64,000 bases of DNA from an uncultured Clostridium sp. (GCA_964608075.1 CAZSMG010000002.1:5154-69153), one strand, 5' to 3'. Positions 44,937 through 64,000 are shown, counted from the stretch's first letter. A program made the numbers and translations. Notes: generated by a model not told the origin, from the sequence alone.

Positions 44937-44952
44937 ATTCTATACCTCTTTC

Positions 44953-46356: not shown

Positions 46357-46572
46357 GTGATTAATATGGCAATAGAGAGAATGCAAAGGACAACTTTAAC
46401 AGCTAAAGAAGCAGCAGAATATTTAGGAATATCTTATTGGTTAATTACACAATTAGTTAAAAGAAAACAAATTCCGTGTTCTAGAGTTGGAAAAAGAATT
46501 TTATTTAGAAAAGAAGCATTAGATATTTATCTAAGCAAAAAAGAAAATGATTCTGTAGAAGAATCTTGTTAG
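46357..46572 (+). CDS. xis: Excisionase/Xis-like helix-turn-helix DNA-binding protein
   Basis: HTH_17-type motif LTAKEAAEYLGISYWLITQLVKRKQIPCSRVGKRILF. 71 aa. Confidence 0.7.
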   Translation: MINMAIERMQRTTLTAKEAAEYLGISYWLITQLVKRKQIPCSRVGKRILFRKEALDIYLSKKENDSVEESC

Positions 46573-46586
46573 AAAGAAGGGAGGAA

Positions 46587-47054: not shown

Positions 47055-47895
47055 TAAAGATGATTTTATTGAGTGTGAATACTGCCAAAATAAATTATAT
47101 AGAAAAACAATTGAGTGGGAATTATATGGGACAAAAAGAACAATAGAATTAGATTATGAAAGATGTAATTGTAATGATGCACAAGCATACTGGAATGAAT
47201 ATGATTTAAATAAAATAAGGACGCTAGAGGAAGAAAAAAAACTAGAATTAATGCAAGAATTTTCAAAAAGAGTTGAGAGAATTATAAAAAATAGCAAGAT
47301 GAGTAAAAGAAATTTAAGTTATAAATTTAATAATTTTGAGCCAAATAATAGTAATAGAAAAATATTTAATAATTTGAAAAACTATAGTGAAAAATTAGTA
47401 AATGGTATAGAGAAAAAGGGATTAATTTTGGTAGGAAATAATGGAATTGGTAAGACACATTTAGCTTGTAGTATTGCAAATAAATTAATTGAAAATGGAA
47501 CACCAGTAATATATGGTACATTAATTAATTTATTAGCAGAATTAAGAAATTCATATGATACAGATAATAATATTTCAGAGATGGAAATTATCAAATTGTA
47601 TGAAAATGTTGACTTATTAATCATAGATGATTTAGGAAAAGAAAAACCAAGTGAATGGGGATTAGAAAAGTTATTTACTATTGTAAATAGTAGATATGAA
47701 AATAATTTACCAGTAATTATAACAACAAATTATAATCAAAATTCTTTAATGGAGAGACTAAGTTTAAATGGAGAAATTGAGACAGCAAAGTCAATTATTT
47801 CAAGATTATATGAGATGTGTTATCTTGTAAAAATAGATGATATAGATCATAGAATTCAAAAGAAAAAAGTTAGTAATTGCGACAACAATGACTAA
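47026..47895 (+). CDS. DnaC/IstB-like AAA+ helicase-loader ATPase with an N-terminal Cys-rich zinc-finger-like segment
   Basis: Walker A GNNGIGKTH, Walker B LLIIDDLGKE, and CEYCQN...CNCND upstream. It overlaps the preceding gene. Confidence 0.8.
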   Translation: MNQILKPSINKDDFIECEYCQNKLYRKTIEWELYGTKRTIELDYERCNCNDAQAYWNEYDLNKIRTLEEEKKLELMQEFSKRVERIIKNSKMSKRNLSYKFNNFEPNNSNRKIFNNLKNYSEKLVNGIEKKGLILVGNNGIGKTHLACSIANKLIENGTPVIYGTLINLLAELRNSYDTDNNISEMEIIKLYENVDLLIIDDLGKEKPSEWGLEKLFTIVNSRYENNLPVIITTNYNQNSLMERLSLNGEIETAKSIISRLYEMCYLVKIDDIDHRIQKKKVSNCDNND

Positions 47896-47979
47896 CTAAA
47901 AAGATTACTTTTTTAAATGTTTTCTATAAAAATTATAAATTATTTTTTCAAAAAAGTAAATAAAAATTGATAAAAAATT

Positions 47980-48220
47980 AGGACAAGCAAGTAGCAAAAT
48001 ATTTACACACTTGTCCTAATTTTTAAAAGAAAATGAATAAAAGATGAACAAAAAAGATCCCTCGGAGAGCCAAAAGGGTATTAGGGCATTTTGCCCTAAA
48101 CAGCAAAAAGGGTGTCAAGACACCATGCTGGCGAATAAAGGGCACTTAAAAATCCACTTTATTCGGAGCAAATAAATTTGCTCAAATTTTCTGAAATTCG
48201 CTTTCGCTATTTCAGAAAAT
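47980..48220. promoter_or_regulatory. Cluster of five consecutive inverted repeats (candidate oriT / single-strand origin / operator array)
   Basis: aggacaag...cttgtcct (47980-48017), tagggcattttgcccta (48082-48098), ggtgtcaagacacc (48111-48124), gagcaaataaatttgctc (48166-48183), ttctgaaattcgctttcgctatttcagaa (48189-48217). Local G+C is elevated. Confidence 0.45.
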
Positions 48221-48245
48221 ATAAGATCAGAAATGGAGAAAAAAT

Positions 48246-48866
48246 ATGAGAGTAATTATGGATGAATTTGATCATGTCTTTTTACCTTATTGGAAAATAC
48301 TAGACAAATTAAAAATATTAAATATAAAAACTAAAAATGGAAAAGAGATAAGTCATAAAGATTTGCGAAAGGCAATATCTGTTATGATAAAAAAACATCC
48401 TACATGTAGATGGAGAAGTGAAAAAATTAGAAGTAAAAGATATTACATTTTGTTTGAAGGATATCTATGGTTAATATACGTATATTTTCAATCAGAAAAG
48501 AAACAAATAGATGCTGATGTAGATTTTTTCAAACTGAGAATAGGAGTATATGAAGAATTTTTAAAAGTAAATCCTGAATCATTATGGAATGAAGATATAA
48601 GTTTTTCGGATTTAGAAAATTATTTTCACAGAAAGAAAGATACAATACATAGAGCAATGGTGAAAATGGCTAAAGAAAATTTTGGAAATACTTTTACTTA
48701 TTATGATAATGATAAATTACTTGTTTCAAAAGAAGGCATTGAATGGCTATGTAAAAATTGTTTCAAGCAAAAGTATTTGGAATTATTAGAAGAATACAAA
48801 ATGGAATTAACAGAAAAATACATTGAAGCAGGATATGTTTATGATGAATTTTTTGGAATGAATTAA
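48246..48866 (+). CDS. Hypothetical protein (206 aa)
   Basis: ORF immediately downstream of the hairpin cluster. No recognisable motif. Confidence 0.5.
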   Translation: MRVIMDEFDHVFLPYWKILDKLKILNIKTKNGKEISHKDLRKAISVMIKKHPTCRWRSEKIRSKRYYILFEGYLWLIYVYFQSEKKQIDADVDFFKLRIGVYEEFLKVNPESLWNEDISFSDLENYFHRKKDTIHRAMVKMAKENFGNTFTYYDNDKLLVSKEGIEWLCKNCFKQKYLELLEEYKMELTEKYIEAGYVYDEFFGMN

Positions 48867-48880
48867 AGGAGGTATCGATT

Positions 48881-49282
48881 ATGAAACATTATTTAAATCC
48901 AGATCAAAGAAGAAAAAGTATAAAAGTATGGGTTTCTGATGAAGAAAGAGCTTTAGTTGAAGCTAAAGCATACAATTATGGCTATAGAAGGATTGCACCA
49001 TATATTAGAGATGCAGCAATTTATGAAAGAGTAACTAATGTAGAAGTAAAAGGAGAAAAAGAAATTCTTAATGCATATGCTGAGAATACTAGAGAAGTTA
49101 AAAGTATCGTTAAAGATATAAGACATATTTGTAAATTTGCTACACAAATTTCTGAAAGAGATAGACAGGAACTTTTACATCTAATGAAAGCCATATATAA
49201 AAAGCAAAATAAAATGCTAGATCTTATTGATAAAAAACTTGATTTAGAGGTATGGCAAGAAGTTAATCGTAATAAAAATTAA
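48881..49282 (+). CDS. MobC-like ribbon-helix-helix mobilisation/relaxosome accessory protein (tentative)
   Basis: N-terminal RKSIKVWVSDEERALVEAKAYNYGYRRIAPYIRDAAI pattern typical of MobC/RHH proteins. AGGAGG RBS. Confidence 0.5.
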   Translation: MKHYLNPDQRRKSIKVWVSDEERALVEAKAYNYGYRRIAPYIRDAAIYERVTNVEVKGEKEILNAYAENTREVKSIVKDIRHICKFATQISERDRQELLHLMKAIYKKQNKMLDLIDKKLDLEVWQEVNRNKN

Positions 49283-49354
49283 AAATAAATAATGTGTAAT
49301 TTATTGAGAAAAAAAGATTATTATGATAGAATAACAAAAGTTAAGAGGTGAAAT

Positions 49355-50356
49355 ATGATAGAATTAGGAGAGATATATAATCAAAAGTTGAAAAATAAAA
49401 AATTTATAGATTTATTTTGTGGACTTGGTGGATTTAGATTGGCCTTAGAATCTTATGGCGCAAAATGTGTATTTAGTTCAGACATAGACAAACATGTAAG
49501 TAAGACATATGAAAATAATTTCGGAGATTATCCATTAAGTGACATAACAAAAGTTGATGAGAAAGATATTCCTAAACATGATATTTTATGTGCGGGTTTT
49601 CCATGTCAAGCATTTAGTATATCTGGAAAGCAAAAAGGATTCGAAGATACCAGAGGGACTCTATTTAGAGAAGTTGTGAGAATTGCTAGTTATCATCAAC
49701 CAGAATTATTATTATTAGAAAATGTAAAGAATTTAGAAAAACATGATAGTGGAAGAACTTTTAAAGTAATAAAGGAAAATATAGAAAACATCGGATATAA
49801 TATGTATTCAAAGGTTATAAATGCTTCTAGATATGGTATTCCTCAATCAAGAGAAAGAATTTACATGGTATGCATTAGAAAAGACTTAGATAATAATAAT
49901 TATAAGTTCCCTCTGCCTGTAAATAAAGAAAGATGTGTTAATGACATACTACTTAATAACGGGGAAGAAAAACAATATATCATTAACAAACCATATAAAT
50001 TAAAAGAGAGAAATCAGCAAATAAAAATGTTTAAAGTTTATGACAAGCCAGTAAGAATTGGAACTGTAAATAAAGGTGGACAAGGCGATAGAATATATGA
50101 TCCAATGGGACAAGCAATAACATTGTCGGCAGAAGGTGGAGGAACTGGTTCTAAAACGGGATTATATTACATAAATAACGAGGTTAGAAAACTACATCCT
50201 AGGGAATGTGCAAGATTGATGGGATATCCAGAAAATTATATTATTGATGAATCAGTTAATCAAGCACAAAAACAATTCGGCAACAGTGTAGTTGTAGATG
50301 TTTTGCAATATGTAATAAAAAGTATCATAGATGAGGGGAGTATAAAAAATGGATAG
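49355..50356 (+). CDS. DNA (cytosine-5)-methyltransferase, M.HhaI-like
   Basis: Motif I FCGLGGF, motif IV GFPCQAFS, motif VI LLENV, and the C-terminal RKLHPRECARLMGYP...QFGNSVV. Extensive collinearity with M.HhaI as recalled from memory, including the TRD segment GKGGQG-RIY...ITLSA-GGG. Confidence 0.9.
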   Translation: MIELGEIYNQKLKNKKFIDLFCGLGGFRLALESYGAKCVFSSDIDKHVSKTYENNFGDYPLSDITKVDEKDIPKHDILCAGFPCQAFSISGKQKGFEDTRGTLFREVVRIASYHQPELLLLENVKNLEKHDSGRTFKVIKENIENIGYNMYSKVINASRYGIPQSRERIYMVCIRKDLDNNNYKFPLPVNKERCVNDILLNNGEEKQYIINKPYKLKERNQQIKMFKVYDKPVRIGTVNKGGQGDRIYDPMGQAITLSAEGGGTGSKTGLYYINNEVRKLHPRECARLMGYPENYIIDESVNQAQKQFGNSVVVDVLQYVIKSIIDEGSIKNG

Positions 50357-51092
50357 TTCAGGGGGTTCAAAAATAGCAAAAGATGGATTTGAAAATGAAA
50401 AGGATATTGCTAATAAATTTATTAATTGGAAAGATGATATAGAAGCACAACAATGGTTAAAAACCATGGGATATAATCTAAATGATATTGAATATGTTTA
50501 TGCAGAAGTTTTACATGGATATAAAACGGATGTACAAGTTCAAGTAACAATAAAACTCAAAAATATTATTGATGCACAAAATTTACAAGTAAAGTTAGTA
50601 AGTAATGCAAAAGGATTCAATCAAATAGATAAAAGATGGATAAAAAATTATGCTGAAATGTGGGAAATGCCTGATAATATAGTTAGATTGCTAAAATATT
50701 ATACGGGAGAGTTTGAACCATATAAGAAAGATACAAGAGATAAAAGAAGAATGTTTATGGATGAATTTTCAGAACAAGAACAAAATGAAATATTAGAATA
50801 CTTTGAACAAAATAAAATGCTTATTATCTTAGACATTGTAAAAGGAAGGGGAAAATTTGCAGCCGAATGGATTTTAGTTGCACAAAAGTATGAAGATATA
50901 TTTAGATGGATATTGAAGCCTATAAATGTTGCTATTAATCATTATAGTGAAGGAAAAGTAGAAATAACTAATAGAGGAAACTTGAAAATTGGAAGAATTG
51001 GAATGCAGAGGAAGGGTGGAGATGCGGGAAGAGAAACCGCAAATATGTTACAGTTTAAAGTAGATCCAATTGAATTGTTTAATTTAAATTAA
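50349..51092 (+). CDS. Putative cognate Type II restriction endonuclease (247 aa)
   Basis: Its start overlaps the methyltransferase stop by 8 nt (translational coupling). The size is typical of small Type IIP enzymes. A terminator hairpin follows at 51108-51145. Confidence 0.5.
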   Translation: MDSSGGSKIAKDGFENEKDIANKFINWKDDIEAQQWLKTMGYNLNDIEYVYAEVLHGYKTDVQVQVTIKLKNIIDAQNLQVKLVSNAKGFNQIDKRWIKNYAEMWEMPDNIVRLLKYYTGEFEPYKKDTRDKRRMFMDEFSEQEQNEILEYFEQNKMLIILDIVKGRGKFAAEWILVAQKYEDIFRWILKPINVAINHYSEGKVEITNRGNLKIGRIGMQRKGGDAGRETANMLQFKVDPIELFNLN

Positions 51093-51164
51093 TATAATTT
51101 TAGTACAAAAGAAAAGTAGAATGAGAAGAAATCATTCTACTTTTCTGGTCTAAAGGGGAGAAAA

Positions 51165-54100
51165 ATGGAAGAGAACACAAATTATGAAGTATTAATTCCT
51201 AATAATATGATTGAAAATAAGGCAGAAGACGCATTAGAATTTGCATTAAAAAATGAGAAGATAAGAAATGTTGCGATAACTGGGCAATATTCTTCAGGAA
51301 AATCAAGTATGATACAATCATATTTTGGTAAATATTGTAAAGAAAAGGAATATTTAAATATATCATTAGCGACATTTGAGAAAAAAGAAAATGCAAATGA
51401 ACCTATTGAAGAATCTAATTCATTGGAAAGAGTTATAATAGAAAAGTTATATTATTCTTTTTTAAAAAAATATGATAAACAAGAAAATATAAAAGAATCT
51501 ATACTAACAGGTATTCTTGTTGCATTTATTAATATAGGAATATACTTATTTAATATTGAAGCAATAAGAAATAGTTTAAATGATAACTTTTGGACAACTC
51601 TAATATTTATTTTCTTAGAAATAATATGTTTAACAAGCATAATAGGATGTTCTATATCATTTGTAATGAATTTTCAGAAGATTAAATTGAAACTAGGAGA
51701 TGTTGAAGTAGAAGTAAATCATAATAGTAAAGAAACTAGCCGTAATTTATTAAATGAGGAAATAGATTTTATTGTAAAAATTATGAGTATTGCTAAATAT
51801 AAGTATATTGTATTTGAAGATTTAGATAGATTTCAAAATCCAAAGATATTTGAAAGATTGAGGGATTTAAATATTACATTAAATTCGACATTAAAGAATA
51901 AAGTGAAATTTATATATGCGATAAAAGATGAAATGTTTATTGCAGACAATAGAACTAAATTTTTTGATTTTATTATACCTGTTGTGCCATATGTGTCTTA
52001 TGAAAATTCAGGAGAAGAATTGTTAAAAATAATAAGAAAGCATGGATTGGAGAATGAACTGTCCGAAGATTTTATTTTAGATATTGCACTATATATACCT
52101 GATATGAGAATATTAAAAAACACAATAAACGAATACATTATTTATAAGAAAACTCTTGATAAGAAGCCACCAAATTATGAGAAATTATTTTCTATTTTAT
52201 TATATAAAAATACTTGTTCACAGGATTTTGCCAAACTACAAAATAAAGACGGTGAAGTATATAAATGTTTTTCTAAAAAAAGCGAAGTAATCGAGAAATA
52301 TATTGAAGAAAAACAAGAAGAAATTGAAGACAAAAAGAAAGAACATAAAGAACTAGAAAAGAATTTAATATCCAAAAACAGTATTAAAGAACTTGCAGTA
52401 TATTATATGAAAAGTATATCTAAAGATTATCAAGTGACATTAAAAAGCATAGAGGGAAAAGAAGTAAGAATACAATTAGGTATGAATGTAGAGAATATTT
52501 CAGATAACATTTTATTTTCAGACAATACAACAATAGAATATGTATATAATGGAAGTTGGAAAACAGAAAATTTATCTAATTTTTTCAAAGAAAAGTGCCC
52601 AGGATTTTTTGAACAATATGAGATTTTTAGAGAAGGTGTAGATGATATAAAAGAAAAAATTAGCATGGAAATAGGAAAGATAAACGAAGAGATTGATAAG
52701 ATAAGAGAATGTACATTAAGTGAACTATTGCAAGAGAATGGAAAAATTGTAACAGTAAGTTTAGGGAAATATAGTGATTTAATTAAATATTTGCTAAATA
52801 ATGGCTATATTGATGAAAATTATAGTACATATATTAATAAATTTCACGAAGGAAGTATTACAGAGAATGATTATAATTTTATAATGAATGTAAGAAATGG
52901 AAAACAAAATAATTATAAAGATAAATTAGACAATACTATAAAAATAATAAAAAGACTAAAAAATGCAGAATTCAAAAAAGAAGAAATATTGAATATAGAT
53001 ATATTAGATGTTCTGATTGAAAATGATCTATATGTTGAGAAAAAGAATATATTTTTTTCAACACTAATAAAATCAAATAGATATGTAGAATTTATTAAAT
53101 ATTGTATATGTGAATCAGAAACATTTAAAAACAAAAATAAAATGATTACAAATTTATGCAAATTAGATAAGGACATATTGAACAAAGTGCAAGATTCTAA
53201 AATTGAAAATAGATATAAAAATTTCATTCTGGAAGATATTATAATAAAAATAGAAATAGATAATTTAAAAGAACTAAATAATATAGATGAGATACTTAAA
53301 TATAGTGAAGAAAACAACCTACTAAAAAAGGCAAAAATAGTTGATATAAAAGATAAAATTGACCAATTTGATATAAAGTATAATAATATTTCTGAATTTA
53401 AAGATAATATTGATTTATATAAATACATTGTAGAGAATAATAAATATAAGATTAATTATGAAAATATATTAGAAATACTTATGAACGAAAGTAAGAGTAA
53501 TAAAGATGAAATAGAAGAAGAGAACTACTATAGTATATCTAAAAATAAACAGTTAAAAAAATATATAGATGAAGATATAGAATTTTATATTGGTAATGTA
53601 TATAGTAAATTACCTAAAAAACAAAAGAATCCTATAGGGATAGTAGTAGATCTACTAAATAATTCTAATATGAATGCTGAAAGTAAACGAAAAATTATAA
53701 TAAAAGAAATTAACAAAATTGAAGACATATCAGAAATACAAGACAGTGGCTTATGGAAAGTTATATTTGACAATAATTTAGTAAAATTAGGATGGAAAAA
53801 TATAAACAATTATTATGAGAAATTAGGATTAGATGAAACATTAATAAATATATTTAATGACAAAGAAAAAAGAAAGTTATTATTACAAGATAATATAAAA
53901 ATTGAAGATAATAGTAATTCAGAATTTATAAGAGATTTATTGTTATCTAATAATTTAAATGAAGAGGCACATAGTTTAATATTAAAAAATAGTGAATACA
54001 AATTAAGTAATGTTGAAATAAGCGAATTAAAAGAAGAGAAACTTCTGAAATTAGTAAATAATAAAAGAATTGAATTTAGCAATGAGATGATAGAAAAGGT

Positions 54101-54635
54101 GAGGGCTTATTCAGTAAAAATGCTAATAGCATTTATAAAGAATAATTATAATAATTTTTATAAAGAAATTGATAATGATAGTATTGTATTTAATTTGGAA
54201 GAAATAAATGGAATTCTTGAATCAGATGTTACACCAAATATGAAAAATAAGTGTATTAATATGATTCGAAATGATGAAATAGAAAGTCTACCAATAGTTT
54301 TATTAGAGAATATTTCATTAGTATCTATAAATAATAACTTAAAAGATAATATAAGTGAAGAAATTCTATTAAAGATTATTATGAATATACAAAATATAGA
54401 ATCAAAGATAAAATTGATAAACTTAAATTTTAGTAAAGTAAGTAGAGATAATATAGATATATTACTAAAAAGTTTAGGTGAGGATTATTATAAAATAATT
54501 GTTAACAGAACAAGGCCAAGTTTAAAACATAATGAATCTAATATATTACTATTAGAAAATATCAAAAGTTTAGGATATAAAATTAAACATGAAACTAATG
54601 GGCAAACTATAAAATTAAAAAATACAATTAGATAA
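51165..54635 (+). CDS. KAP-family P-loop NTPase (1156 aa) with TM helices inserted in the NTPase domain and a long K/E/N-rich helical C-terminal region
   Basis: Walker A ITGQYSSGKSS, Walker B KYIVFEDLDRF. Two to four hydrophobic helices (ILTGILVAFINIGIYLF, TTLIFIFLEIICLTSIIGCSISFV) lie between them. This is the KAP hallmark. Confidence 0.8.
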   Translation: MEENTNYEVLIPNNMIENKAEDALEFALKNEKIRNVAITGQYSSGKSSMIQSYFGKYCKEKEYLNISLATFEKKENANEPIEESNSLERVIIEKLYYSFLKKYDKQENIKESILTGILVAFINIGIYLFNIEAIRNSLNDNFWTTLIFIFLEIICLTSIIGCSISFVMNFQKIKLKLGDVEVEVNHNSKETSRNLLNEEIDFIVKIMSIAKYKYIVFEDLDRFQNPKIFERLRDLNITLNSTLKNKVKFIYAIKDEMFIADNRTKFFDFIIPVVPYVSYENSGEELLKIIRKHGLENELSEDFILDIALYIPDMRILKNTINEYIIYKKTLDKKPPNYEKLFSILLYKNTCSQDFAKLQNKDGEVYKCFSKKSEVIEKYIEEKQEEIEDKKKEHKELEKNLISKNSIKELAVYYMKSISKDYQVTLKSIEGKEVRIQLGMNVENISDNILFSDNTTIEYVYNGSWKTENLSNFFKEKCPGFFEQYEIFREGVDDIKEKISMEIGKINEEIDKIRECTLSELLQENGKIVTVSLGKYSDLIKYLLNNGYIDENYSTYINKFHEGSITENDYNFIMNVRNGKQNNYKDKLDNTIKIIKRLKNAEFKKEEILNIDILDVLIENDLYVEKKNIFFSTLIKSNRYVEFIKYCICESETFKNKNKMITNLCKLDKDILNKVQDSKIENRYKNFILEDIIIKIEIDNLKELNNIDEILKYSEENNLLKKAKIVDIKDKIDQFDIKYNNISEFKDNIDLYKYIVENNKYKINYENILEILMNESKSNKDEIEEENYYSISKNKQLKKYIDEDIEFYIGNVYSKLPKKQKNPIGIVVDLLNNSNMNAESKRKIIIKEINKIEDISEIQDSGLWKVIFDNNLVKLGWKNINNYYEKLGLDETLINIFNDKEKRKLLLQDNIKIEDNSNSEFIRDLLLSNNLNEEAHSLILKNSEYKLSNVEISELKEEKLLKLVNNKRIEFSNEMIEKVRAYSVKMLIAFIKNNYNNFYKEIDNDSIVFNLEEINGILESDVTPNMKNKCINMIRNDEIESLPIVLLENISLVSINNNLKDNISEEILLKIIMNIQNIESKIKLINLNFSKVSRDNIDILLKSLGEDYYKIIVNRTRPSLKHNESNILLLENIKSLGYKIKHETNGQTIKLKNTIR

Positions 54636-54750
54636 TAATTATTGTATAAAATTTCAATATATAAGATATTAACTTAAATTCATTTCGTTGTCAAAAGGTG
54701 TTATTTATGATAGAATGCTATCAAATAATTATATTTTTAGGAGACCAATT

Positions 54751-54936
54751 ATGAAAATTAAGTGTTTAATTTGTGGAAACATAATAGAATCAAAAAGTGT
54801 ACATGATTTAGCATCTTGCAAATGTGAATCGTGTTATATTGATGGTGGAAGTTATTATGCACATATAGGTGCAAGAGACTTTAATAAAATTGTTAAAATT
54901 TTGGATGATGGAATAGAAGTTAAATGTTGCAATTAA
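54751..54936 (+). CDS. Small zinc-ribbon protein (about 61 aa)
   Basis: CLICGN...CKCESC...CC pattern. AGGAG RBS 7 nt upstream of the MKIKCLICG start. The track ORF starts at 54688. A terminator-like hairpin (gcaaaata...tattttgc plus T-run) follows. Confidence 0.5.
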   Translation: MKIKCLICGNIIESKSVHDLASCKCESCYIDGGSYYAHIGARDFNKIVKILDDGIEVKCCN

Positions 54937-55091
54937 TATATGAATAACAAAAGAAAGGCAAAATAGTAATGTGATTAATTTTACAAGATTATTTTGCTTT
55001 TTTTGATAATTAATTACAAGTTTCGACAAATTATTTAATTAAAAAGTAATATAATATTAAAGTAATAATATATGTAAAAGGAGTCAAGTAA

Positions 55092-57440
55092 ATGAATATT
55101 GTAGAAAATGGAGTAAAAGTAGATTTTCACATACATTCTATTGCATCTAAACATAAAGAAGAGTCAGGAAAAGTTGAAAATTCGACAATTGATAAATTGG
55201 ATATATTAATAAAAAATCTAAATGATAGACAAATCAATATGTGTTCAATTTCTGATCATGATAATTTTGATATAAATATTTATAAAGCTTTAAAGAAACA
55301 AGAAAACAAAGGATCTATAAAGAAAGTTTTACCAGCAGTAGAATTTTCAGTAAAGTATGATTCAAAAGTAATACATATTATTACAATTTTTGAAGATAAT
55401 GATGACAATAAATTGGAGAATATTAACAAACTTATATTTGATAATAAGAAAAATATTCCATTATATGACCAAGAAATGTCATTTTCAGAAGAAAAATTTT
55501 TAGAGATATTAAAGAAAATAGATTTAAATGTTGTTATGATTGCACATCAAAAAGAAAGTTTAACAAGTAATAAAATAAGAAACAATGATGTTATGTCTTT
55601 AGGAAAAGAAAAATTTAATGAATTAGTATTTATAGATTATTTTGAATCTTTTGAATTCAAAAACAAAAGAAATGAAATATTTAATAAATATTATATAGAA
55701 AATAATCAAGAAAATTTAAATAGTGAAGATTTAAGATTTATTACTGGAAGTGATTGTCATAAATGGAGTGAGTATCCATTAGAAGATGAAAAATTCTCTT
55801 TTACTTATTTAAAATGTTTGCCAACATTTAGAGGATTGGCAATGGCAATTACAAATACTAAAAGAATAAAATTAGTAAATAGCTTTTTTTCAAATAGTGA
55901 TAATAAAGTTGATAGTATAAAGATTTCGATTAATGGTAAGGAAAAAAATATTCCTTTATCAAGAGGAATAAATGCGATCATAGGAGATAATTCAATAGGA
56001 AAATCATTATTACTTCATAAAATAACTAATTATGAATACTTAAAAGATTCAAAAATAGAAAAGAAGTATGAAGAGTATTTAAACAAAAATAATATTCAAC
56101 TTGAAACATCTATTTCACAAGATAAAATATATAGAGTTGATAAACAGGGTGCAGTAAGGGAAATGTTTGAAAAAAAGACTTTTAATGTAAATGGATTTTT
56201 AAATGAATATTTTCCTCCTGTACCAAATGTTGAAAAATATAAAACTAAGGTAAAGGATGAAATACATAGATATATACAAGATATAAAGGATAATTATGAT
56301 TATAGAGAAAATAAAAAGAAAATATCTAGTTTTTATATAAAATATTTTGAAGAAAATGCAAAATCATTAAATCTTCAAAAAACTAGAAAGAATTTTAAAG
56401 CTAAAATCCAAAAACTAAATAATATTATAGCTGAGTTTGAAGATATTAATTTGAAGCTAGATAAACTAATTAAAAATAAAGATGTTTTTGAAGATGATGT
56501 TAAATTATTGGAAGAACAGAAGAATATTTATTATAAATTGATAGATAAATATAATCAAGAAATTGAAAGGTGGAAATTTGAAAATAGTAAGATTAAGATT
56601 GTAAATGATTGCTTAGGAAAATTGGCACAGAAGTTACAGAAATCTAAAACTGATAATACAAAGGCAATAGAAAATTACGAAAACACATTAGAGACATTCG
56701 AAGATAATATCGTAAATTTATATTTGCAATCAAAAAAAGAAAGAATCTATTCTGCGAATATAAAGAAGGAAATAATTCCTATAGAATATAATAATGTTGG
56801 TACATATAGATTTATTAATAAATGTGATGTTGAAGAAGTATCAAATGAGTATATTATAAAAAGTATTCAAAAGGTATTAGGCAAAAAAATTAAAGATATA
56901 AATACTTTAACAGAAGATAATATTTCAGAGAAGCTAGAAGGAGAAGACTTTTACGAAAAATTAGATAATTTAGAGAAAGAAATATACAAAAAGATTGAAT
57001 CAGACTTTAAATACAAGCCAATAATAAATAACTTAGAGGATAAAGATATTACTAAAGAATTGTCAGCTGGATTTAATTCAAAGATATATTTTGATATATT
57101 ATCCGAACAAAGTCAAAAAGATGGTATATATATAATAGATCAACCAGAAGATGATGTATCACAAAAGTCAATTAAAGAGTATTTGTTAGAAGATTTTTAT
57201 AATATGAGTCAAAATAGACAAATTATCTTAGTAACGCATAACCCTCAATTTATTGTAAATTTAGATGTTGATAATGTCATTTATCTAGGAAAGAATGAGG
57301 ATAATGAAATTATAGTACAAAGTGGAGCATTGGAGTATTTTAATGAAGAATATGATATGTTAAAAATTGTGGCAGATAATATAGATGGAGGAATTAGTTC
57401 TATTAATGAAAGGTGGAAAAGATATGAAAAAAATATATAA
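55092..57440 (+). CDS. PHP-domain phosphoesterase fused to an ABC-type (OLD/Rad50-like) ATPase with a coiled-coil insert
   Basis: N-terminal PHP motifs DFHIHSIAS and SISDHDN. Walker A GDNSIGKS. A long coiled-coil segment of about 300 aa. Signature-like LSAGFN, Walker B IYIIDQPEDD, H-loop ILVTHNPQF. Confidence 0.8.
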   Translation: MNIVENGVKVDFHIHSIASKHKEESGKVENSTIDKLDILIKNLNDRQINMCSISDHDNFDINIYKALKKQENKGSIKKVLPAVEFSVKYDSKVIHIITIFEDNDDNKLENINKLIFDNKKNIPLYDQEMSFSEEKFLEILKKIDLNVVMIAHQKESLTSNKIRNNDVMSLGKEKFNELVFIDYFESFEFKNKRNEIFNKYYIENNQENLNSEDLRFITGSDCHKWSEYPLEDEKFSFTYLKCLPTFRGLAMAITNTKRIKLVNSFFSNSDNKVDSIKISINGKEKNIPLSRGINAIIGDNSIGKSLLLHKITNYEYLKDSKIEKKYEEYLNKNNIQLETSISQDKIYRVDKQGAVREMFEKKTFNVNGFLNEYFPPVPNVEKYKTKVKDEIHRYIQDIKDNYDYRENKKKISSFYIKYFEENAKSLNLQKTRKNFKAKIQKLNNIIAEFEDINLKLDKLIKNKDVFEDDVKLLEEQKNIYYKLIDKYNQEIERWKFENSKIKIVNDCLGKLAQKLQKSKTDNTKAIENYENTLETFEDNIVNLYLQSKKERIYSANIKKEIIPIEYNNVGTYRFINKCDVEEVSNEYIIKSIQKVLGKKIKDINTLTEDNISEKLEGEDFYEKLDNLEKEIYKKIESDFKYKPIINNLEDKDITKELSAGFNSKIYFDILSEQSQKDGIYIIDQPEDDVSQKSIKEYLLEDFYNMSQNRQIILVTHNPQFIVNLDVDNVIYLGKNEDNEIIVQSGALEYFNEEYDMLKIVADNIDGGISSINERWKRYEKNI

Positions 57441-57699
57441 TTTTGAAGAAAATGAGGAAGCATATGCAATTTTTTTTGAAGAAACAGAAGTATATACAAT
57501 TAATAAGGATAATTTAAAGGTAGATGGAACTAGATTTTATGAAACTTTTTTTAGCGAATACTCTATTGGCGATACCATAGAATTAAATAAAGGCAATAGT
57601 GTTGATAATAGCAATAAACTATCAATTGCTATTTATGATACTATAAACAAATTGATAAATGAGATAATTAAAAAAATAGATGAAGAAAAAGAGGAGTAA
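57424..57699 (+). CDS. Small acidic protein (91 aa) translationally coupled to the PHP-ATPase gene
   Basis: ATG at 57424 overlaps the last 17 nt of the upstream gene in another frame. A terminator follows directly. Confidence 0.5.
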   Translation: MKKIYNFEENEEAYAIFFEETEVYTINKDNLKVDGTRFYETFFSEYSIGDTIELNKGNSVDNSNKLSIAIYDTINKLINEIIKKIDEEKEE

Positions 57700-57727
57700 G
57701 AAGGCGAAACAATCGCCTTCTTTGAGA
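57700..57727 (+). terminator. Rho-independent terminator
   Basis: Hairpin gaaggcg-aaacaa-tcgccttc followed by TTTG. Confidence 0.7.
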
Positions 57728-57732
57728 GTATA

Positions 57733-59197
57733 GAAAAAGTTGTGTAAATAAATCCTTCCGTGATAAAATATAAAATATCAAGGAGGGATTTTTTCTATGG
57801 GTAAAAAAGTAGAAAAAGAAAAAAATGAATTAGTAGAGGAGTTTTTTAGAAGAAATGATCCAAAAAATATTAAATCTATGAATGATATGTATGCAGCATG
57901 GAAAGATTTCTTTGCTCCTGCTTTCCAACAATTGCTAGATGCAGAAATGGAGGCTAAAATTGGTTATTCTAAAAATGAAAGAACAGATAATAACAATTAT
58001 CGAAATGGATATTATCCAGAAAGAACTGTAGCAACAGAAATGGGAGATATTCCAGTAAAAGTACCTAGAGATAGAAATGGAGAAATTGACTCTAATTTAG
58101 TTCCTAAATATTCACGAACAGCAAATGGATTTGATGAAAAGGTAATATCTATGTATGCTTTAGGAATGTCTGATAAAGATATTCAAGAACAAATAAAGGA
58201 AATATTTGGTTGTAATCTTTCACCAGACATGATAAGTGATATAACAGATAAGATTATACCAGAAATACAAGAATGGCAAAAAAGGAAACTAGAAAGTGTT
58301 TATCCAATAGTATTCATAGATGCAACACATTTCCATGTCCGCGATAACGGACAAATAGTAAAGAAAGCTGCATATGTAGTGTTAGGAATTGATAAAGATG
58401 GAATGAAGAAAGTATTAACAATAACAATAGGAGAAAATGAAAGTGCAAAATATTGGATGACAGTATTAAATGAACTCAAAAATCGAGGAGTACAAGATAT
58501 TCTAGTATTATGTGCAGATGGACTAACAGGACTAAAAGATGCAATATCAGCTATTTATCCTAAAACAGAATATCAAAGATGTATAGTACATCAAATAAGA
58601 AACTCATTAAAGTATGTTCCATACACAGATAGAAAAGAATTAGCTAATGACTTAAAAACAGTTTACAAGGCAAGTACAGAAGAAATCGGCTATACAAATT
58701 TATTAGAATTAGAAGAAAAATGGAAAAATAAATATCCTGGTGCAATTCAAAGTTGGATAGATAATTGGGATGTACTTTCCGTATTTTTCAAATTCTCAGC
58801 AGAAATACGAAAAATAATGTATACAACAAATGCAATAGAAAGCTTAAATAGTACATATAAAAGGATTAACAGAAATAGAAATGTATTTCCAACAGATATG
58901 TCTTTACTAAAAGTTCTTTATCTTTCAACATTGAAAGCAGAGAAAAAATGGTCAAGAATGGTTGATAAATGGGACTTATGTTTGTCCCAATTTAGAATTA
59001 TGTATGAAGGTAGAATATAGTTAAAAGCCTAAAATAATAGGCTTAAGAAGAAATTTTCTTAAGTCCTATTAATTTTACACAACTTTTTCTAAAAAATTGA
59101 TTTTTTAGAAAAATATTATTAAAATAAACATAGTTATAAAAATATTAATTTTTTCAAGTTATCAATCGGAAGGAAATCCGATTTACACAACTTTTAC
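57733..59197 (+). mobile_element. IS256-family insertion sequence, with a second nested copy of the right inverted repeat
   Basis: Left IR gaaaaagttgtgtaaataaatccttcc (57733-57759). Right IR-like ...tcctattaattttacacaactttttc (about 59063-59090). A second IR copy ggaaggaaatccgatttacacaacttttac (59168-59197). A mutator-type transposase gene lies between them. Confidence 0.8.
57797..59020 (+). CDS. IS256-family (mutator-type) transposase
   Basis: 407 aa. Conserved DDE region (VFIDATHFHVRDNG...LVLCADGLTGL...YQRCIVHQIRN). Confidence 0.9.
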   Translation: MGKKVEKEKNELVEEFFRRNDPKNIKSMNDMYAAWKDFFAPAFQQLLDAEMEAKIGYSKNERTDNNNYRNGYYPERTVATEMGDIPVKVPRDRNGEIDSNLVPKYSRTANGFDEKVISMYALGMSDKDIQEQIKEIFGCNLSPDMISDITDKIIPEIQEWQKRKLESVYPIVFIDATHFHVRDNGQIVKKAAYVVLGIDKDGMKKVLTITIGENESAKYWMTVLNELKNRGVQDILVLCADGLTGLKDAISAIYPKTEYQRCIVHQIRNSLKYVPYTDRKELANDLKTVYKASTEEIGYTNLLELEEKWKNKYPGAIQSWIDNWDVLSVFFKFSAEIRKIMYTTNAIESLNSTYKRINRNRNVFPTDMSLLKVLYLSTLKAEKKWSRMVDKWDLCLSQFRIMYEGRI

Positions 59198-59271
59198 GAT
59201 ATTCTCCTTCCTTTCTCCTTTTTGACATTTTAAAGTGCAATTTTATATTTTTAAAGTGCAAATTTTGCACT

Positions 59272-59577
59272 TTAAAATGAAACATTATTATTACAACATC
59301 CCATAATCAACTGCACCCCATCTACAAAACCATTCCTATAATACTTCTCATTCCAATAATCAATATAATTCATAAAATTCTCATCAAGAAAACCAAGCTG
59401 TTTTTGAACATATTTCCTATCTTTTTTAGGAACACGTTTTAAAATCCTTTCAGAAATCTCATCAAAATAAATATGATGTTTTCTATCCTCATCACAAGTC
59501 AAAGAACATAAATCCTCCTCTCTAAAATTTAACCAATCTTTTAAAATATCATTATTAACCTCTCTAAAATTATTCAT
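59272..59577 (-). CDS. Hypothetical protein (about 101 aa)
   Basis: GGAGG RBS with an 8-nt spacer to the MNNFREV start. The track ORF begins at 59607. Confidence 0.45.
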   Translation of the reverse strand: MNNFREVNNDILKDWLNFREEDLCSLTCDEDRKHHIYFDEISERILKRVPKKDRKYVQKQLGFLDENFMNYIDYWNEKYYRNGFVDGVQLIMGCCNNNVSF

Positions 59578-59695
59578 TGTTAAAACCTCCATTTTTATAA
59601 ATTTCAAAATTTAACACATCAAAACACAATAAAACTTGCAAATACAAATTCAAAAATCCATTGAAATTTCATGTATTTGATGCCTCAAAAAACTG

Positions 59696-59713
59696 GGGAC
59701 AAATTGGGGACAA
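59696..59713 (+). repeat. Arm-type repeat GGGGACAAATTGGGGACA, right copy
   Basis: Matches 43172-43189. Confidence 0.6.
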
Positions 59714-59830
59714 TGCTAGCAAAAATAGACCTATTTTAACCTAATTCATAATCACACCAATTTGCTATAACCCTATTAAAACCAATAAAAACTCAAGTTA
59801 ACAAAATTTCTCAAAAACACTTATTAAATT

Positions 59831-59845
59831 CTCATAACCCGAAGG
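59831..59845 (+). other. Putative attR core: 15-nt exact copy of the tRNA-fMet anticodon stem-loop segment
   Basis: ctcataacccgaagg is identical to 43055-43069. The following sequence only weakly resembles the tRNA 3-prime half. Confidence 0.5.
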
Positions 59846-60101: not shown

Positions 60102-63032
60102 ATGAACGAAAAGGAATTAATATACGAAGGAATTGAAACTGCGTTTATTAACTATAATAATCAATCGAATGTAGCATATAAACCACAATTTATATCAAAT
60201 GATTATAAAGAAGGAAGAAAGGTAATATCAACTCTAGAAGACGAACTATTAAAATGTGATAAATTTGATATTAGTGTAGCATTTATAACAGATGGAGGAA
60301 TTGCACCATTATTACAAACATTAAAATTACTAGAAAGCAAAAATATTAAAGGAAGAATTCTAACAACTGATTATTTAGGTTTTAATGATCCTAAAGCATT
60401 AAAAAAATTAACTCAATTCAAAAATATAGAATTAAAAATGTATATGACAGAAAGTTCTGGAGAAGGATTCCATACGAAAGGATATATGTTTAAAAACAAA
60501 GATATATACAGAATAATTATTGGAAGCTCTAATATGACTCAAAAAGCATTATCTGTTAATAGAGAATGGAATACTAAAATTGTATCAACAGAACAAGGAG
60601 AGTATGCGAAAGAAATTCTTAGTGAATTTGAAGGATTATGGGAATCAAAGTATACCTTAGCGTATGAAGATTTTATTGAAAAATATGAATTAAAATATAA
60701 AATAATAAAAGAACAAAGAAGAATTGCGAGCTCTAAGGCAATACCAACTATTAAAGAATATAAATTACAGCCTAATGCTATGCAAGTAAGTTTTATAAAT
60801 AATTTAAATAAAATAGTGGAAATGGGAGAAAATAAAGCTTTATTAATTTCAGCTACTGGTACTGGAAAAACATATGCTTCAGCTTTTGCGTTAAGAGATG
60901 CAAAACCAAGAAGAGCACTATTTTTAGTACATAGAGAGCAAATTGCAAAACAAGCGATTGAAAGTTACAAGAAAATATTTGGAAAAACAAAAACTTTTGG
61001 ATTGCTTTCTGGAAATTCTAAAGATTTTAAAACAGATTATTTATTTTCTACAATGCAAATGATGAGTAAAGAGGAGATATATACTAAATTTAAAAAGGAT
61101 GAATTTGATATAATTGTTATAGATGAAGCACATCGAGTAGGCGCTAGTAGTTATCAAAAACTTATACAATATTTTAAGCCAAAGTTATTATTAGGAATGA
61201 CTGCATCACCTGAAAGGACGGATGGATATGATGTGTATAAAGAATTTAACTATAATATAGCATATGAAATTAGATTGGAACAAGCATTAGAAGAAAATTT
61301 TCTATGCCCTTTTCATTACTTTGGAATAACTGACCTAGAATTTGAAGGGGAAACGATAAATGAAGAAACAAAATTAAGGGACTTCGCAAAATTAACAAGT
61401 GATGAAAGAGTTAAATATATAATAGAGCAAATAGAATTTTATGGACATTCTGGTACAAACATAAATGGACTCGTTTTCTGTAGCTCTAAAAAAGAAGCTC
61501 AGATACTAAGTAATAAATTTAATGAAAAAGGATATTTCACAGTAGCACTTACTGGAGAAGATTCACAAGAAAAGAGAGAAGAAGCAATTAATAGATTAAC
61601 TTCTAAAAATATTGAAGAAAAGATAGATTATATTTTTACAGTAGATATTTTTAACGAGGGTGTTGATATACCAGAAATTAATCAAATAATAATGTTAAGG
61701 CCAACAGAATCTCCAATTGTATTTGTACAACAATTAGGAAGAGGGTTAAGAAAAGCATCAGACAAAGAATATGTAGTTATACTTGATTTTATAGGAAATT
61801 ATAAAAATAACTTTATGATTCCAATAGCATTATCAGGAGACCGCAGTTATAATAAAGATAATATACGTAGGTATGTGTTAGAAGGAGATAGAGTTATTCC
61901 AGGATCTTCAACGATTCATTTTGATGAAATATCTAAAAAAAGAATATTTGAAGCGATTGATAGCGCTGATTTTACTGATATAAAATTAATTAAAGAAAAT
62001 TATACTAATTTAAAAAATAAATTAGGGCATATTCCGTCATTGTTAGATTTTGATAAATATGGTGAAATGGATGTATTAAAAATTTTTGATAATAAGAGTT
62101 TAGGCTCGTATTATAAGTTTTTAACAAAATATGAAAAAGATTATAAAGTTAGATTATTAGAGAATGAAGAAAAAGTTATTGAATTTATATCTAAAAAGTT
62201 AGCAAGTGGAAAAAGAATACATGAATTAGAATTATTAAAAATTATGATTACAGAAGATGTTCAATTATTTACAAAACTTAGGGATAAACTTTCAAAGATA
62301 TATAATATAAATATTACAGAACAAGAAGAAAGAAGCGTTATAAATATATTGACTAATAATTTTGCTTCGGGTTCAAGTAAAAATACATATAAAGAATGTG
62401 TTTTTATTGAAGAAAAAAATAATAATGATTATAGTAAAACAGAATCATTTAAAAATATGTTAAATAATCAAGAATTTAAGAAGATCTTTGAAGAACTAAT
62501 TGAATTTGGAATTAGTAGATATAATCAAAATTATAGTAAAAAATATCAAGATACTCAGTTAGTAATATATCAAAAATATACATATGAAGATGTATGTAGA
62601 CTATTAAATTGGAGAAATAACGAAGTTCCACTTAATATAGGTGGATATAAATTTGATAAAGATACAAAAACATTTCCTGTTTTTATTAACTATGATAAAA
62701 ATGATGAAATTAATGATAGTATAAAATACGAAGATCACTTTGAAAGTAGTAATAAATTAATAGCTATCTCCAAAAGTGGAAGAAATATAAATTCAGAAGA
62801 TGTACAAAATCTTATTAATGCAAAAGATAGGGGAATAAAAGTTGAATTATTTGTTAGGAAAAATAAAGATGATAAAATCTCAAAAGAATTTTACTATTTA
62901 GGTAGAATGAATGCTACAGGAAAAGTTAGAGAATTTATTATGCCTAATACAAATAAAACAGCAGTAGAGATAGAGTGGATATTAGAAGCGCCTGTAAGAG
63001 AAGATATATATGAATATATAATAGATTGTTAA
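60102..63032 (+). CDS. SauUSI-like Type IV (modification-dependent) restriction enzyme: PLD-family nuclease, SF2 helicase/ATPase and a C-terminal specificity domain
   Basis: N-terminal HKD motif (HTKGYMFKNKD...GSSNMT). Helicase motifs I (ISATGTGKT), II (VIDEAHRV) and III (TASPER). A C-terminal domain of about 250 aa. 976 aa. Confidence 0.75.
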   Translation: MNEKELIYEGIETAFINYNNQSNVAYKPQFISNDYKEGRKVISTLEDELLKCDKFDISVAFITDGGIAPLLQTLKLLESKNIKGRILTTDYLGFNDPKALKKLTQFKNIELKMYMTESSGEGFHTKGYMFKNKDIYRIIIGSSNMTQKALSVNREWNTKIVSTEQGEYAKEILSEFEGLWESKYTLAYEDFIEKYELKYKIIKEQRRIASSKAIPTIKEYKLQPNAMQVSFINNLNKIVEMGENKALLISATGTGKTYASAFALRDAKPRRALFLVHREQIAKQAIESYKKIFGKTKTFGLLSGNSKDFKTDYLFSTMQMMSKEEIYTKFKKDEFDIIVIDEAHRVGASSYQKLIQYFKPKLLLGMTASPERTDGYDVYKEFNYNIAYEIRLEQALEENFLCPFHYFGITDLEFEGETINEETKLRDFAKLTSDERVKYIIEQIEFYGHSGTNINGLVFCSSKKEAQILSNKFNEKGYFTVALTGEDSQEKREEAINRLTSKNIEEKIDYIFTVDIFNEGVDIPEINQIIMLRPTESPIVFVQQLGRGLRKASDKEYVVILDFIGNYKNNFMIPIALSGDRSYNKDNIRRYVLEGDRVIPGSSTIHFDEISKKRIFEAIDSADFTDIKLIKENYTNLKNKLGHIPSLLDFDKYGEMDVLKIFDNKSLGSYYKFLTKYEKDYKVRLLENEEKVIEFISKKLASGKRIHELELLKIMITEDVQLFTKLRDKLSKIYNINITEQEERSVINILTNNFASGSSKNTYKECVFIEEKNNNDYSKTESFKNMLNNQEFKKIFEELIEFGISRYNQNYSKKYQDTQLVIYQKYTYEDVCRLLNWRNNEVPLNIGGYKFDKDTKTFPVFINYDKNDEINDSIKYEDHFESSNKLIAISKSGRNINSEDVQNLINAKDRGIKVELFVRKNKDDKISKEFYYLGRMNATGKVREFIMPNTNKTAVEIEWILEAPVREDIYEYIIDC

Positions 63033-63044
63033 TGGAGGAGTAAA

Positions 63045-63431
63045 ATGAAGGATATAAAAGTTGTTGCAGCAATTATTATTGATAAGAATAAAATATTTGC
63101 TACTCAAAGAGGATATGGAGAATTTAAAGATGGCTGGGAATTTCCAGGAGGAAAAATAGAAGAAGGAGAAACGGCAGAAGAGGCACTACTTAGAGAAATA
63201 CAAGAAGAGTTAGATACTAAAATAAGTATTAAAGGTAAAATTGATACAGTAGAATATGATTATCCAAAATTCCATCTTTCAATGGATTGTTTTGTATGTA
63301 ATATAATAGAGGGAGATTTAATATTGAAGGAACATGAAGCGGCAAAATGGCTTTCAAAAGATGAATTATACAGTGTTGATTGGTTACCAGCTGATAAAGG
63401 ATTAATCGAAAAAATCAAAAGTTATATATAA
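63045..63431 (+). CDS. NUDIX hydrolase (MutT/NudG-like (d)NTP pyrophosphohydrolase)
   Basis: Nudix box GGKIEEGETAEEALLREIQEELD. 128 aa. 12 nt downstream of the Type IV enzyme gene. Confidence 0.8.
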   Translation: MKDIKVVAAIIIDKNKIFATQRGYGEFKDGWEFPGGKIEEGETAEEALLREIQEELDTKISIKGKIDTVEYDYPKFHLSMDCFVCNIIEGDLILKEHEAAKWLSKDELYSVDWLPADKGLIEKIKSYI

Positions 63432-63493
63432 AATGAATATAATGGTAAATAAAGATAGCATAGATAAGTAAAAAATAGAAAGGAAATTTAAAA

Positions 63494-64000
63494 TGCTAAC
63501 CCAAACACAAAAATTAAAATCAATATTTAATGAACAACAGATAAATGCAATTAATGATATAATTGAAGAAATAGAAAAAGATGGACAAGAATATAAAACA
63601 ATAAACTTATGGAAATTTGATCAAACTATTGGAGGAATAGGAGGATATAGTCAAGGGTGCGATCCTGCACGCTCAAATCCGCTTCAAGGAACAGAATTTA
63701 GAAATGCATATAGATGTTTACAGTATATTAGAAGTTATATTGATATATTAAATATCAACTATACAGCAAGAGATATAATAGAAAATTGTGGACATCATTT
63801 TGAAGAATCAATAAAAATATATTTAAAAAGAACCAAGAAGGTTAAGTGGATAAAAGTTAGTAGATATCCATTAGGGAAACTATTAATTTATATAGCTGAT
63901 AAAAATATATTTGAAGAAGAAATTACAGAAGCATTAAAGCTATTTGTCGATCTATATAATATATCAAAGCATGAAATATTATCAAATGATGAATTAGATA
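63494..64000 (+). CDS. Hypothetical protein, 3-prime-truncated by the window end
   Basis: ORF with an AGGAAA RBS. It runs off the window. No motif recognised. Confidence 0.4.

Follow-up and report, generated by a model that had tools for sequence, protein, structure and literature searches.

A 64,000-nucleotide (nt) stretch of DNA from an uncultured Clostridium sp. (GCA_964608075.1, CAZSMG010000002.1:5154-69153; here called the window, with positions counted from its first letter) carries at 60102-63431 a gene for a SauUSI-family Type IV restriction enzyme, followed by a gene for a small NUDIX hydrolase. We are close to certain of the identity of this SauUSI-type plus NUDIX pair, and the pairing is real and ancient. 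The pairing has already been published; what is new here is a substrate-based explanation for the role of the NUDIX protein. Its most likely role, to which we give about an even chance, is to sanitize pools of modified-cytosine deoxynucleoside triphosphates (dNTPs) and so to prevent self-restriction. Three lines of evidence converge on this one model: published kinetic constants for a homologue, a signature of shared residues, and fusions and neighborhoods of the gene that are tied to 5-methylcytosine (5mC). The window locus is an ordinary, intact example of the SauUSI-NUDIX module, in DNA that is about 25% G+C throughout, and its features are as follows.

60102-63032, plus strand: gene for the SauUSI-family Type IV restriction enzyme, 976 amino acids (aa), full length, with a TAA stop codon at 63030-63032.
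60261-60641, plus strand: PLD-family nuclease domain, residues 54 to 180 (PLDc_2, E = 4e-15), with H124-x-K126 ... G141-S142-x-N144.
60765-61751, plus strand: superfamily 2 (SF2) DExH helicase-like ATPase motor (ResIII, residues 222 to 372, E = 1e-36; Helicase_C, residues 443 to 550, E = 2e-18).
62184-63020, plus strand: DUF3427 region, residues 695 to 973 (E = 1.4e-94, full profile), a predicted coupler and SRA-fold target-recognition domain (TRD) for 5mC and 5-hydroxymethylcytosine (5hmC).
63033-63044, plus strand: intergenic spacer of 12 nt with a ribosome-binding site, GGAGG, at 63034-63038, upstream of the ATG at 63045.
63045-63431, plus strand: NUDIX hydrolase gene of the PADLOC PDC-S07 family, 128 aa, a predicted 5-substituted (d)CTP pyrophosphohydrolase.
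63150-63218, plus strand: Nudix box, residues 36 to 58, GKIEEGETAEEALLREIQEELDT, with catalytic residues E42, R50, E51, E54, and E55.

The larger gene was examined by profile and structure-based matches. In addition to the Pfam domains listed above, the PADLOC model mREase_IV matched residues 13 to 974 of the 976-aa protein (E = 8e-232), and solved SauUSI (PDB 7CLG) aligned with residues 13 to 973 (E = 4e-226). A preliminary description of this DNA had read a PLD nuclease, an SF2 DEAH helicase, and a C-terminal domain as the architecture of a SauUSI-like Type IV enzyme; the Pfam domains and the full-length matches bear this out, and the coordinates that it gave, as well as the 12-nt gap to a MutT-like NUDIX gene, are exact. 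Conservation was assessed in a family alignment of 45 diverse representatives, taken from the 2113 proteins that an exhaustive search with HMMER found at E ≤ 1e-30. The PLD residues (H124, K126, G141, S142, and N144) and the motor motifs (Walker A K256, D341-E342-x-H344, and motif VI R547/R550) are all present in the window protein and invariant among the 45 representatives. By correspondence, H124 and K126 are H119 and K121 of SauUSI, where an H119A substitution abolishes nuclease activity (2021 structure paper). With all catalytic motifs present, the 976-aa protein is an intact SauUSI-family Type IV enzyme, predicted to cleave 5mC- and 5hmC-containing DNA in an ATP-dependent manner.

The C-terminal domain, for which the preliminary description had considered that it might be unrelated to known readers of modified bases, is DUF3427, the SRA-fold 5mC reader of SauUSI. 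This region of the window protein aligned with the TRD of 7CLG; the C-terminal TRD of SauUSI has the SRA fold (2021 structure paper), and SauUSI reads both 5mC and 5hmC (Xu et al. 2011; structure paper). The 5mC pocket modeled for SauUSI comprises M829, Y831, F841, I842, D858, and W868 (2021 structure paper). In the window protein, Y849, F861, I862, and D878 keep positions of this modeled pocket. The equivalent of W868, modeled as stacking on the flipped 5mC, is A888 (within 62760-62768, which encodes residues 887 to 889), and the equivalent of M829 is G847, in an alignment column that is variable. Because Ala occupies the W868 position in 10 of the 45 representatives and in 120 of 120 close relatives, A888 appears to mark a stable sub-type and not decay. 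An A888/G847 pocket may differ from SauUSI in its site preference, S5mCNGS, and this group may be a specificity sub-type.

The gene for the NUDIX protein would be co-transcribed with the large gene. No terminator-like hairpin was predicted between the two, and a scan for promoters upstream was uninformative in DNA of 25% GC (59 sites versus 52 expected). Pfam matches to the 128-aa protein were to NUDIX (E = 3e-18) and NUDIX_4, with weak Nudt16-like matches as well. Compared with the consensus GX5EX7REUXEEXGU, the Nudix box reads G36-K-I-E-E-G-E42 ... R50-E51-I-Q-E54-E55-L-D-T, and the sole change is that of the penultimate Gly to Asp; the five catalytic residues are 100% conserved in 67 SauUSI-linked NUDIX proteins. 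PDC-S07, a PADLOC phage-defense candidate, matched residues 1 to 126 (E = 5e-51), and among solved proteins the closest is 3GWY (E = 1e-29), which is Q5LBB1_BACFN of Bacteroides fragilis and is described as a "putative CTP pyrophosphohydrolase." The top NCBIfam match was TIGR00586 "mutt," with 93.6 bits, under its curated cut-off of 97.9, and the NudG/Orf135 model (PRK10546) gave 79 bits, under its curated cut-off of 156. Sequence identity of the window protein is 46% with Q5LBB1, compared with 35% with MutT and 32% with NudG.

To what extent the two genes travel together was determined from one genome per GTDB species, with the family alignment as the seed, which yielded 80 loci at 40 to 65% identity. 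These span Bacillota, Actinomycetota, Bacteroidota, Pseudomonadota, Spirochaetota, and three archaeal lineages; bacterial loci include those of Lachnospiraceae, Erysipelotrichaceae, Veillonella, Streptococcus, Collinsella, Sutterella, Succinatimonas, Flavobacteriia, Bacteroidales, and Treponemataceae, and archaeal loci include those of Methanobrevibacter, Methanosarcinaceae, Methanolobus, and Bathyarchaeota. With the window NUDIX protein as the tblastn query, a homologue (38 to 73% identity) was found no more than 394 nt from the SauUSI homologue in 68 of the 80 loci. Of the 12 loci without a match, most lack the flank, and the linked loci number 69 once locus L050, with a truncated NUDIX C terminus at a contig edge, is counted. 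The NUDIX gene lies downstream on the same strand in 40 of the 68 loci, upstream on the same strand in 18, convergent in 9, and divergent in 1. Across linked loci, SauUSI identity and NUDIX identity were correlated (Spearman rho = 0.64, p = 7e-9). The pair is kept with a 14-nt gap, and with housekeeping genes after it, in a metagenomic relative that is 83% identical, and in Staphylococcus aureus the NUDIX gene lies 28 to 38 nt upstream of SauUSI on the same strand. The preliminary description had asked whether the NUDIX gene is syntenic elsewhere; the 69 linked loci and S. aureus answer that it is.

The pair is also plasmid borne, on a mobilizable Lactiplantibacillus plantarum plasmid and on Chondrinema and Hymenobacter plasmids, and occurs on an unverified virome scaffold. 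A further record, S. aureus strain 333 "plasmid unnamed2" (L097, 5995-7790), holds sauUSI in three pieces and, inverted, part of a second copy; a fragment of the chromosome or an assembly error is more probable than a plasmid. No direct NUDIX-SauUSI fusion was found among 150 family representatives. In one Lachnospiraceae metagenome-assembled genome (MAG), a SauUSI-linked NUDIX gene (L036, 8982-10349) runs without a stop codon into a SIR2_2 domain, for a total of 455 aa; an in-frame MKKRE still begins the second part, and a genuine fusion and a lost stop codon are both possible.

The linkage had been noted by Xu et al. (2011): sauUSI has a conserved MutT/NUDIX gene, SAUSA300_2432, linked to it. 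They counted at least 60 such pairs, wrote that the function "remains to be examined," and offered the removal of pyrophosphate as a guess. A clean deletion of this gene in S. aureus Newman brought no gain in transformability, i.e., restriction was intact (Monk et al. 2012). Because the deletion strain still restricts, the NUDIX protein is not an obligatory nuclease subunit. By direct text search, the NUDIX protein is mentioned neither in the 2021 SauUSI structure paper nor in a 2025 review of restriction biology, and a 2025 single-molecule preprint was not among the papers found to contain both "SauUSI" and "Nudix." Our literature searches found nothing on NUDIX function in Type IV restriction beyond the remarks of 2011 and 2012; PDC-S07 was found only in surveys and prediction lists, with no published defense test.

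What the NUDIX protein hydrolyzes is suggested by its closest solved relative. Q5LBB1 was screened against 74 Nudix substrates, with kcat/Km values (M-1s-1) of 6.7e6 for 5-Me-CTP, 4.8e6 for 5-Me-dCTP, 4.4e6 for 5-hydroxymethyl-dCTP, and 8.5e4 for 5-OH-dCTP; the enzyme is near diffusion limited, its cut falls between the alpha and beta phosphates, and canonical nucleoside triphosphates are much poorer substrates (Nguyen et al. 2016). The best substrates of Q5LBB1 thus include the triphosphates of both bases that SauUSI recognizes in DNA, 5mC and 5hmC. Relatives of Q5LBB1 match the PDC-S07 model (E = 1e-42), and Q5LBB1 shares with the window protein a five-residue signature, Y73/F76/M80/W113/D117. 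Among the 67 SauUSI-linked NUDIX proteins, Y73, W113, and D117 are each 100% conserved and F76 and M80 are each 99% conserved. At the same positions, MutT has F, R, L, F, and N, and NudG has V, R, L, L, and D. D117 lies at the position of MutT Asn119, the key 8-oxoG determinant, at which an N119A substitution costs 1650-fold in affinity for 8-oxo-dGMP; this position is Asp in all 67 linked proteins and also in NudG, for which the best and likely physiological substrate is 5-methyl-dCTP. As judged from homology and signature residues, the window NUDIX protein probably belongs to the class of 5-substituted (d)CTP pyrophosphohydrolases.

Q5LBB1 (3GWY) was considered as a SauUSI-linked gene and rejected, as it stands alone in Bacteroides and Parabacteroides. 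The substrate assignment therefore rests on homology and signature residues and not on shared context. A neighbor-joining tree that nested 3GWY inside the SauUSI-linked radiation was dropped, since its deep nodes lacked bootstrap support.

The same NUDIX family is found in other contexts, and all the members described here match PDC-S07 over their full length. In Collinsella aerofaciens (L103, 4501-5490; NZ_OY725717.1, 730145-731134), a 329-aa protein is a fusion of NUDIX and Vsr, with the NUDIX domain N-terminal (residues 5 to 127) and the family signature present; no SauUSI gene was found within 4.5 kb of it. Vsr is an endonuclease that repairs the T:G mismatches resulting from deamination of 5mC. 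In Treponema saccharophilum, the NUDIX gene, which overlaps that for an AAA_21 ATPase, is situated between two dcm genes and the gene for an Eco47II-family endonuclease. The Selenomonas copy has a GmrSD-type enzyme and a nucleoside 2-deoxyribosyltransferase encoded nearby. The Vsr fusion and the dcm and GmrSD-type neighborhoods are independent links to 5mC biology. In Vibrio sp. RE86 (L094, 5001-7187) and in a metagenomic contig (L092, 5001-7402), the NUDIX gene abuts or overlaps a gene for a DUF2075/Schlafen-group-3 helicase (595 to 665 aa), which is the PADLOC candidate PDC-S41; the Vibrio pair is inside a defense island, between HsdR (Type I restriction-modification [R-M]) and McrBC. The N-terminal domain of PDC-S41 had no PDB sequence match and in Pfam only a sub-threshold match to NERD, and no literature was found on PDC-S41 or on DUF2075 with Nudix. 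On the L. plantarum plasmid (NZ_CP028230.1; L098, 5377-7457), the genes directly after the NUDIX-SauUSI pair encode a MazG-like pyrophosphohydrolase of 106 aa and then a GIY-YIG/Schlafen-type nuclease-helicase, a second, non-homologous pairing of house-cleaning enzyme and nuclease-helicase.

In the working model, the SRA-fold domain of the large protein would flip out 5mC or 5hmC in incoming DNA and thereby switch on the SF2 motor, which would translocate and deliver the dimeric PLD nuclease, and the modified DNA would be shredded. These steps were shown for S. aureus SauUSI and would extend to the window enzyme, judging by 43 to 50% identity and intact motifs. The NUDIX protein would not be part of the nuclease. 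It would convert 5-methyl-dCTP and 5-hydroxymethyl-dCTP, along with 5-methyl-CTP, to the monophosphates. Possible sources of such modified nucleotides are restricted DNA that has been degraded, host m5C DNA undergoing turnover, and the enzymes of phages. A single site is enough for SauUSI to cleave DNA, and initiation is possible on hemimethylated DNA, so that 5mC or 5hmC incorporated by a polymerase is a potential self-target. Clearance of the pool would keep the replicative polymerase from incorporating 5mC or 5hmC at random, and the chromosome would offer no targets to the neighboring enzyme. The NUDIX protein would in this way be the "hygiene" partner of a restriction enzyme that has no self-protecting methyltransferase. 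The usual view of Type IV enzymes is that they are encoded by lone genes and require no protection of self. This anti-autoimmunity step we propose with somewhat less assurance than pool sanitation as a whole. At the same tentative level, the SauUSI family may come with a dedicated pool-cleaning NUDIX protein, and the NUDIX family (in one case a MazG-like enzyme) may be a portable accessory for nuclease-helicase defense and for m5C/Vsr systems.

The model fits the tight, arrangement-independent linkage, the dispensability of the NUDIX gene for restriction, the viability of the deletion strain where there is no source of 5mC nucleotides, and the Vsr fusion and dcm neighborhoods. That the NUDIX protein could sanitize modified nucleotide pools had been raised in the preliminary description; with the Q5LBB1 kinetics, the signature, and the Vsr context, it is now the best-supported reading, still one that we infer. 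Several observations weigh against it. Preferential hydrolysis of 5-substituted dCTP has been measured, within this family, for Q5LBB1 only, and Q5LBB1 and its close relatives have no SauUSI neighbor in Bacteroides and Parabacteroides. A clade of Q5LBB1 and the window protein that excludes MutT and NudG was recovered in 32 of 200 bootstraps. Intact SauUSI genes without an adjacent NUDIX gene occur at four of the loci (L016, L044, L055, and L067), and the SIR2_2 read-through of L036 hints at other nucleotide chemistry. S. aureus Newman with its NUDIX gene deleted is viable with SauUSI present, in a strain that was given no 5mC-nucleotide challenge. Finally, for the model to hold, 5-methyl-dCMP must be phosphorylated to the triphosphate in bacteria fast enough to matter.

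The main rival shares the chemistry of pool sanitation and differs in purpose: the NUDIX protein would be an anti-phage effector that destroys the 5-hydroxymethyl-dCTP and 5-methyl-dCTP pools of phages with hypermodified cytosine, as a second layer of defense. The activity of Q5LBB1 on 5-hydroxymethyl-dCTP given above would serve this purpose equally, PADLOC classes the family as a phage-defense candidate, the pair occurs on mobilizable plasmids, and NUDIX genes of this family lie in defense islands with partners that vary (SauUSI, the PDC-S41 helicase, and GmrSD-type neighborhoods). However, adjacency of about 94% across phyla is much tighter than is usual for independent defense genes, a sign of dependence, and both the fusion to Vsr and the stand-alone housekeeping contexts speak for a role in looking after the host genome. 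No published defense test of PDC-S07 was found; we consider phage starvation unlikely, if the strongest of the alternatives. A more mundane possibility is a MutT-type antimutator (8-oxo-dGTPase) of the usual kind, or a house-cleaner of broad scope, whose position has no meaning for its function. The TIGR00586 top match, the annotation of relatives as 8-oxo-dGTP diphosphatases, and the absence of a restriction phenotype in the S. aureus deletion would all agree with this, but the TIGR00586 score falls short of its cut-off, the Asn119 of MutT is replaced by Asp in every linked protein, identity is lower to MutT than to the 5-Me-dCTPase, and adjacency is kept in four arrangements in both bacteria and archaea, which leaves this explanation improbable.

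We hold as equally improbable that the NUDIX protein modulates the nuclease by acting on its nucleotide cofactor or on its products, either by removal of pyrophosphate from ATP/dATP use, the original suggestion of Xu et al. (2011), or by hydrolysis of a signaling nucleotide or ADP-ribose-type compound. The weak Nudt16-like Pfam matches and the SIR2_2 read-through in one MAG are in keeping with such a role. NUDIX enzymes are not known to be inorganic pyrophosphatases, which counts against pyrophosphate removal. ATPase assays show that the SauUSI motor releases phosphate, not pyrophosphate (structure paper), and pyrophosphate removal was rejected on these biochemical grounds. Against cofactor tuning in general, deletion leaves restriction unchanged and the closest characterized relatives are (d)NTP pyrophosphohydrolases.

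The surroundings of the pair include an integrative island that ends shortly before it. Features outside the pair are as follows.

43024-43099: tRNA-Met, next to the integrase gene.
43024-59845: integrative island of about 16.8 kb at tRNA-Met, bounded by a 15-nt exact repeat (43055 and 59831).
43294-44481, minus strand: integrase.
49355-50356: C5-methyltransferase, overlapping the R.HinP1I-like endonuclease; the two lie about 10 kb from the Type IV gene.
50349-51092: R.HinP1I-like endonuclease.
55092-57440: 782-aa protein with no Pfam match at E ≤ 0.01 and weak PADLOC matches to PDC-M49A (E = 3e-5) and, over the C terminus, to the PtuA ATPase.
57724-59206: IS256-family (Mutator-type transposase) insertion with 26-nt terminal inverted repeats, 88% complementary.
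59272-59607, minus strand: 111-aa open reading frame (ORF) without a family match, inside the right end of the island, between the insertion element and attR.
59831-59845, plus strand: attR-like core at the right end of the island, an exact 15-nt copy of the tRNA-Met anticodon arm with a decayed T-arm after it.
63493-64000: ORF after the NUDIX gene, at least 169 aa, which runs off the window and has no significant Pfam or PADLOC match.

The 15-nt anticodon-arm repeat occurs at two places in the window (43055 and 59831) and in none of 100 shuffles. A second motif, GGGGACAAnTTGGGGACA, lies just inside both island ends (43172 and 59695), was likewise absent from 100 shuffles, and may be an arm-type integrase site. 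The ATG of the SauUSI-like gene is 256 nt outside the attR-like core, which lies upstream of it, in agreement with the earlier placement of the pair just outside the island boundary. The island also holds replication and mobilization genes and a YobI/Tmn-type NTPase (1156 aa). The locus had been described beforehand as a defense hotspot of R-M, KAP, and PHP-ATPase genes; the R-M system stands and "KAP" is acceptable for the YobI-like/Tmn NTPase, but the label "PHP-ATPase" for the 782-aa protein was unverified by profile searches. The 83%-identical relative has entirely different defense genes upstream (MmeI-like, GmrSD, and AAA_15), and at the place of the last ORF of the window it has a PNP_UDP_1 nucleoside phosphorylase. 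Because relatives carry other defense genes there, the position upstream of the SauUSI gene is an insertion hotspot.

The presence of a C5-methyltransferase beside a 5mC-dependent nuclease bears on the model. As inferred from the family of its endonuclease partner, the island methyltransferase would make G5mCGC, as HinP1I systems do. If so, the mark does not fit S5mCNGS, and the island methyltransferase and a SauUSI-type enzyme can coexist; they can do so here only if the window Type IV enzyme ignores the island-methylated site. Turnover of the island-methylated DNA would be a standing source of 5-methyl-dCMP, a setting in which a pool sanitizer would matter.

In staphylococci, SauUSI is what chiefly stands in the way of genetic manipulation and of horizontal gene transfer. 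Members of its family are widespread among gut bacteria and archaea, and the conserved NUDIX neighbor has been without a functional explanation since 2011. If pool sanitation is correct, it would be a way in which modification-dependent nucleases avoid autoimmunity, it would explain the enrichment of PDC-S07 in defense islands without PDC-S07 necessarily being a defense protein, and nucleotide-pool sanitation would be a recurring accessory function of bacterial immunity.

The system most like that of the window is SauUSI of S. aureus USA300 (SAUSA300_2431; 7CLG), which has the same four-part architecture, aligns end to end, conserves the PLD, Walker A, DEAH, and motif VI residues, and has an adjacent NUDIX gene of the same PDC-S07 family (SAUSA300_2432, E = 3e-55, compared with 5e-51 for the window protein). 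The two enzymes differ in that they are about 43 to 50% identical and that the window protein has Ala for W868 and Gly for M829, and the gene order is reversed, with NUDIX upstream in S. aureus and downstream in the window. Q5LBB1 of B. fragilis (3GWY) resembles the window NUDIX protein in length, in PADLOC model, in the Y/F/M/W/D signature, and in 46% identity; unlike the window gene, the Bacteroides gene stands alone beside a DprA-like gene with no restriction enzyme adjoining. Nguyen et al. (2016) treat Q5LBB1 as an antimutator and draw no link to restriction. Escherichia coli NudG (Orf135) and MutT share the MutT fold, the Nudix box, and the size of the window NUDIX protein, and NudG shares the Asp as well, but both lack Y73/F76/M80/W113, the window protein misses the curated cut-offs of their models, and neither nudG nor mutT is linked to restriction in E. 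coli K-12.

Two further comparisons concern function. DCTPP1 of human and mouse, the mammalian 5-methyl-dCTP sanitizer, would do the same job as that proposed here, keeping 5-methyl-dCTP out of the replication pool, with an unrelated fold (DCTPP1 is all-alpha and MazG-like). The window pair also resembles Type II and Type I R-M pairs in that a nuclease is tightly linked to a small partner which, on the proposed model, would be self-protecting. It differs from them, where a methyltransferase protects self, in that no mark would be added, the mark instead being kept out at the level of the precursor, and in that the partner is dispensable in the laboratory.

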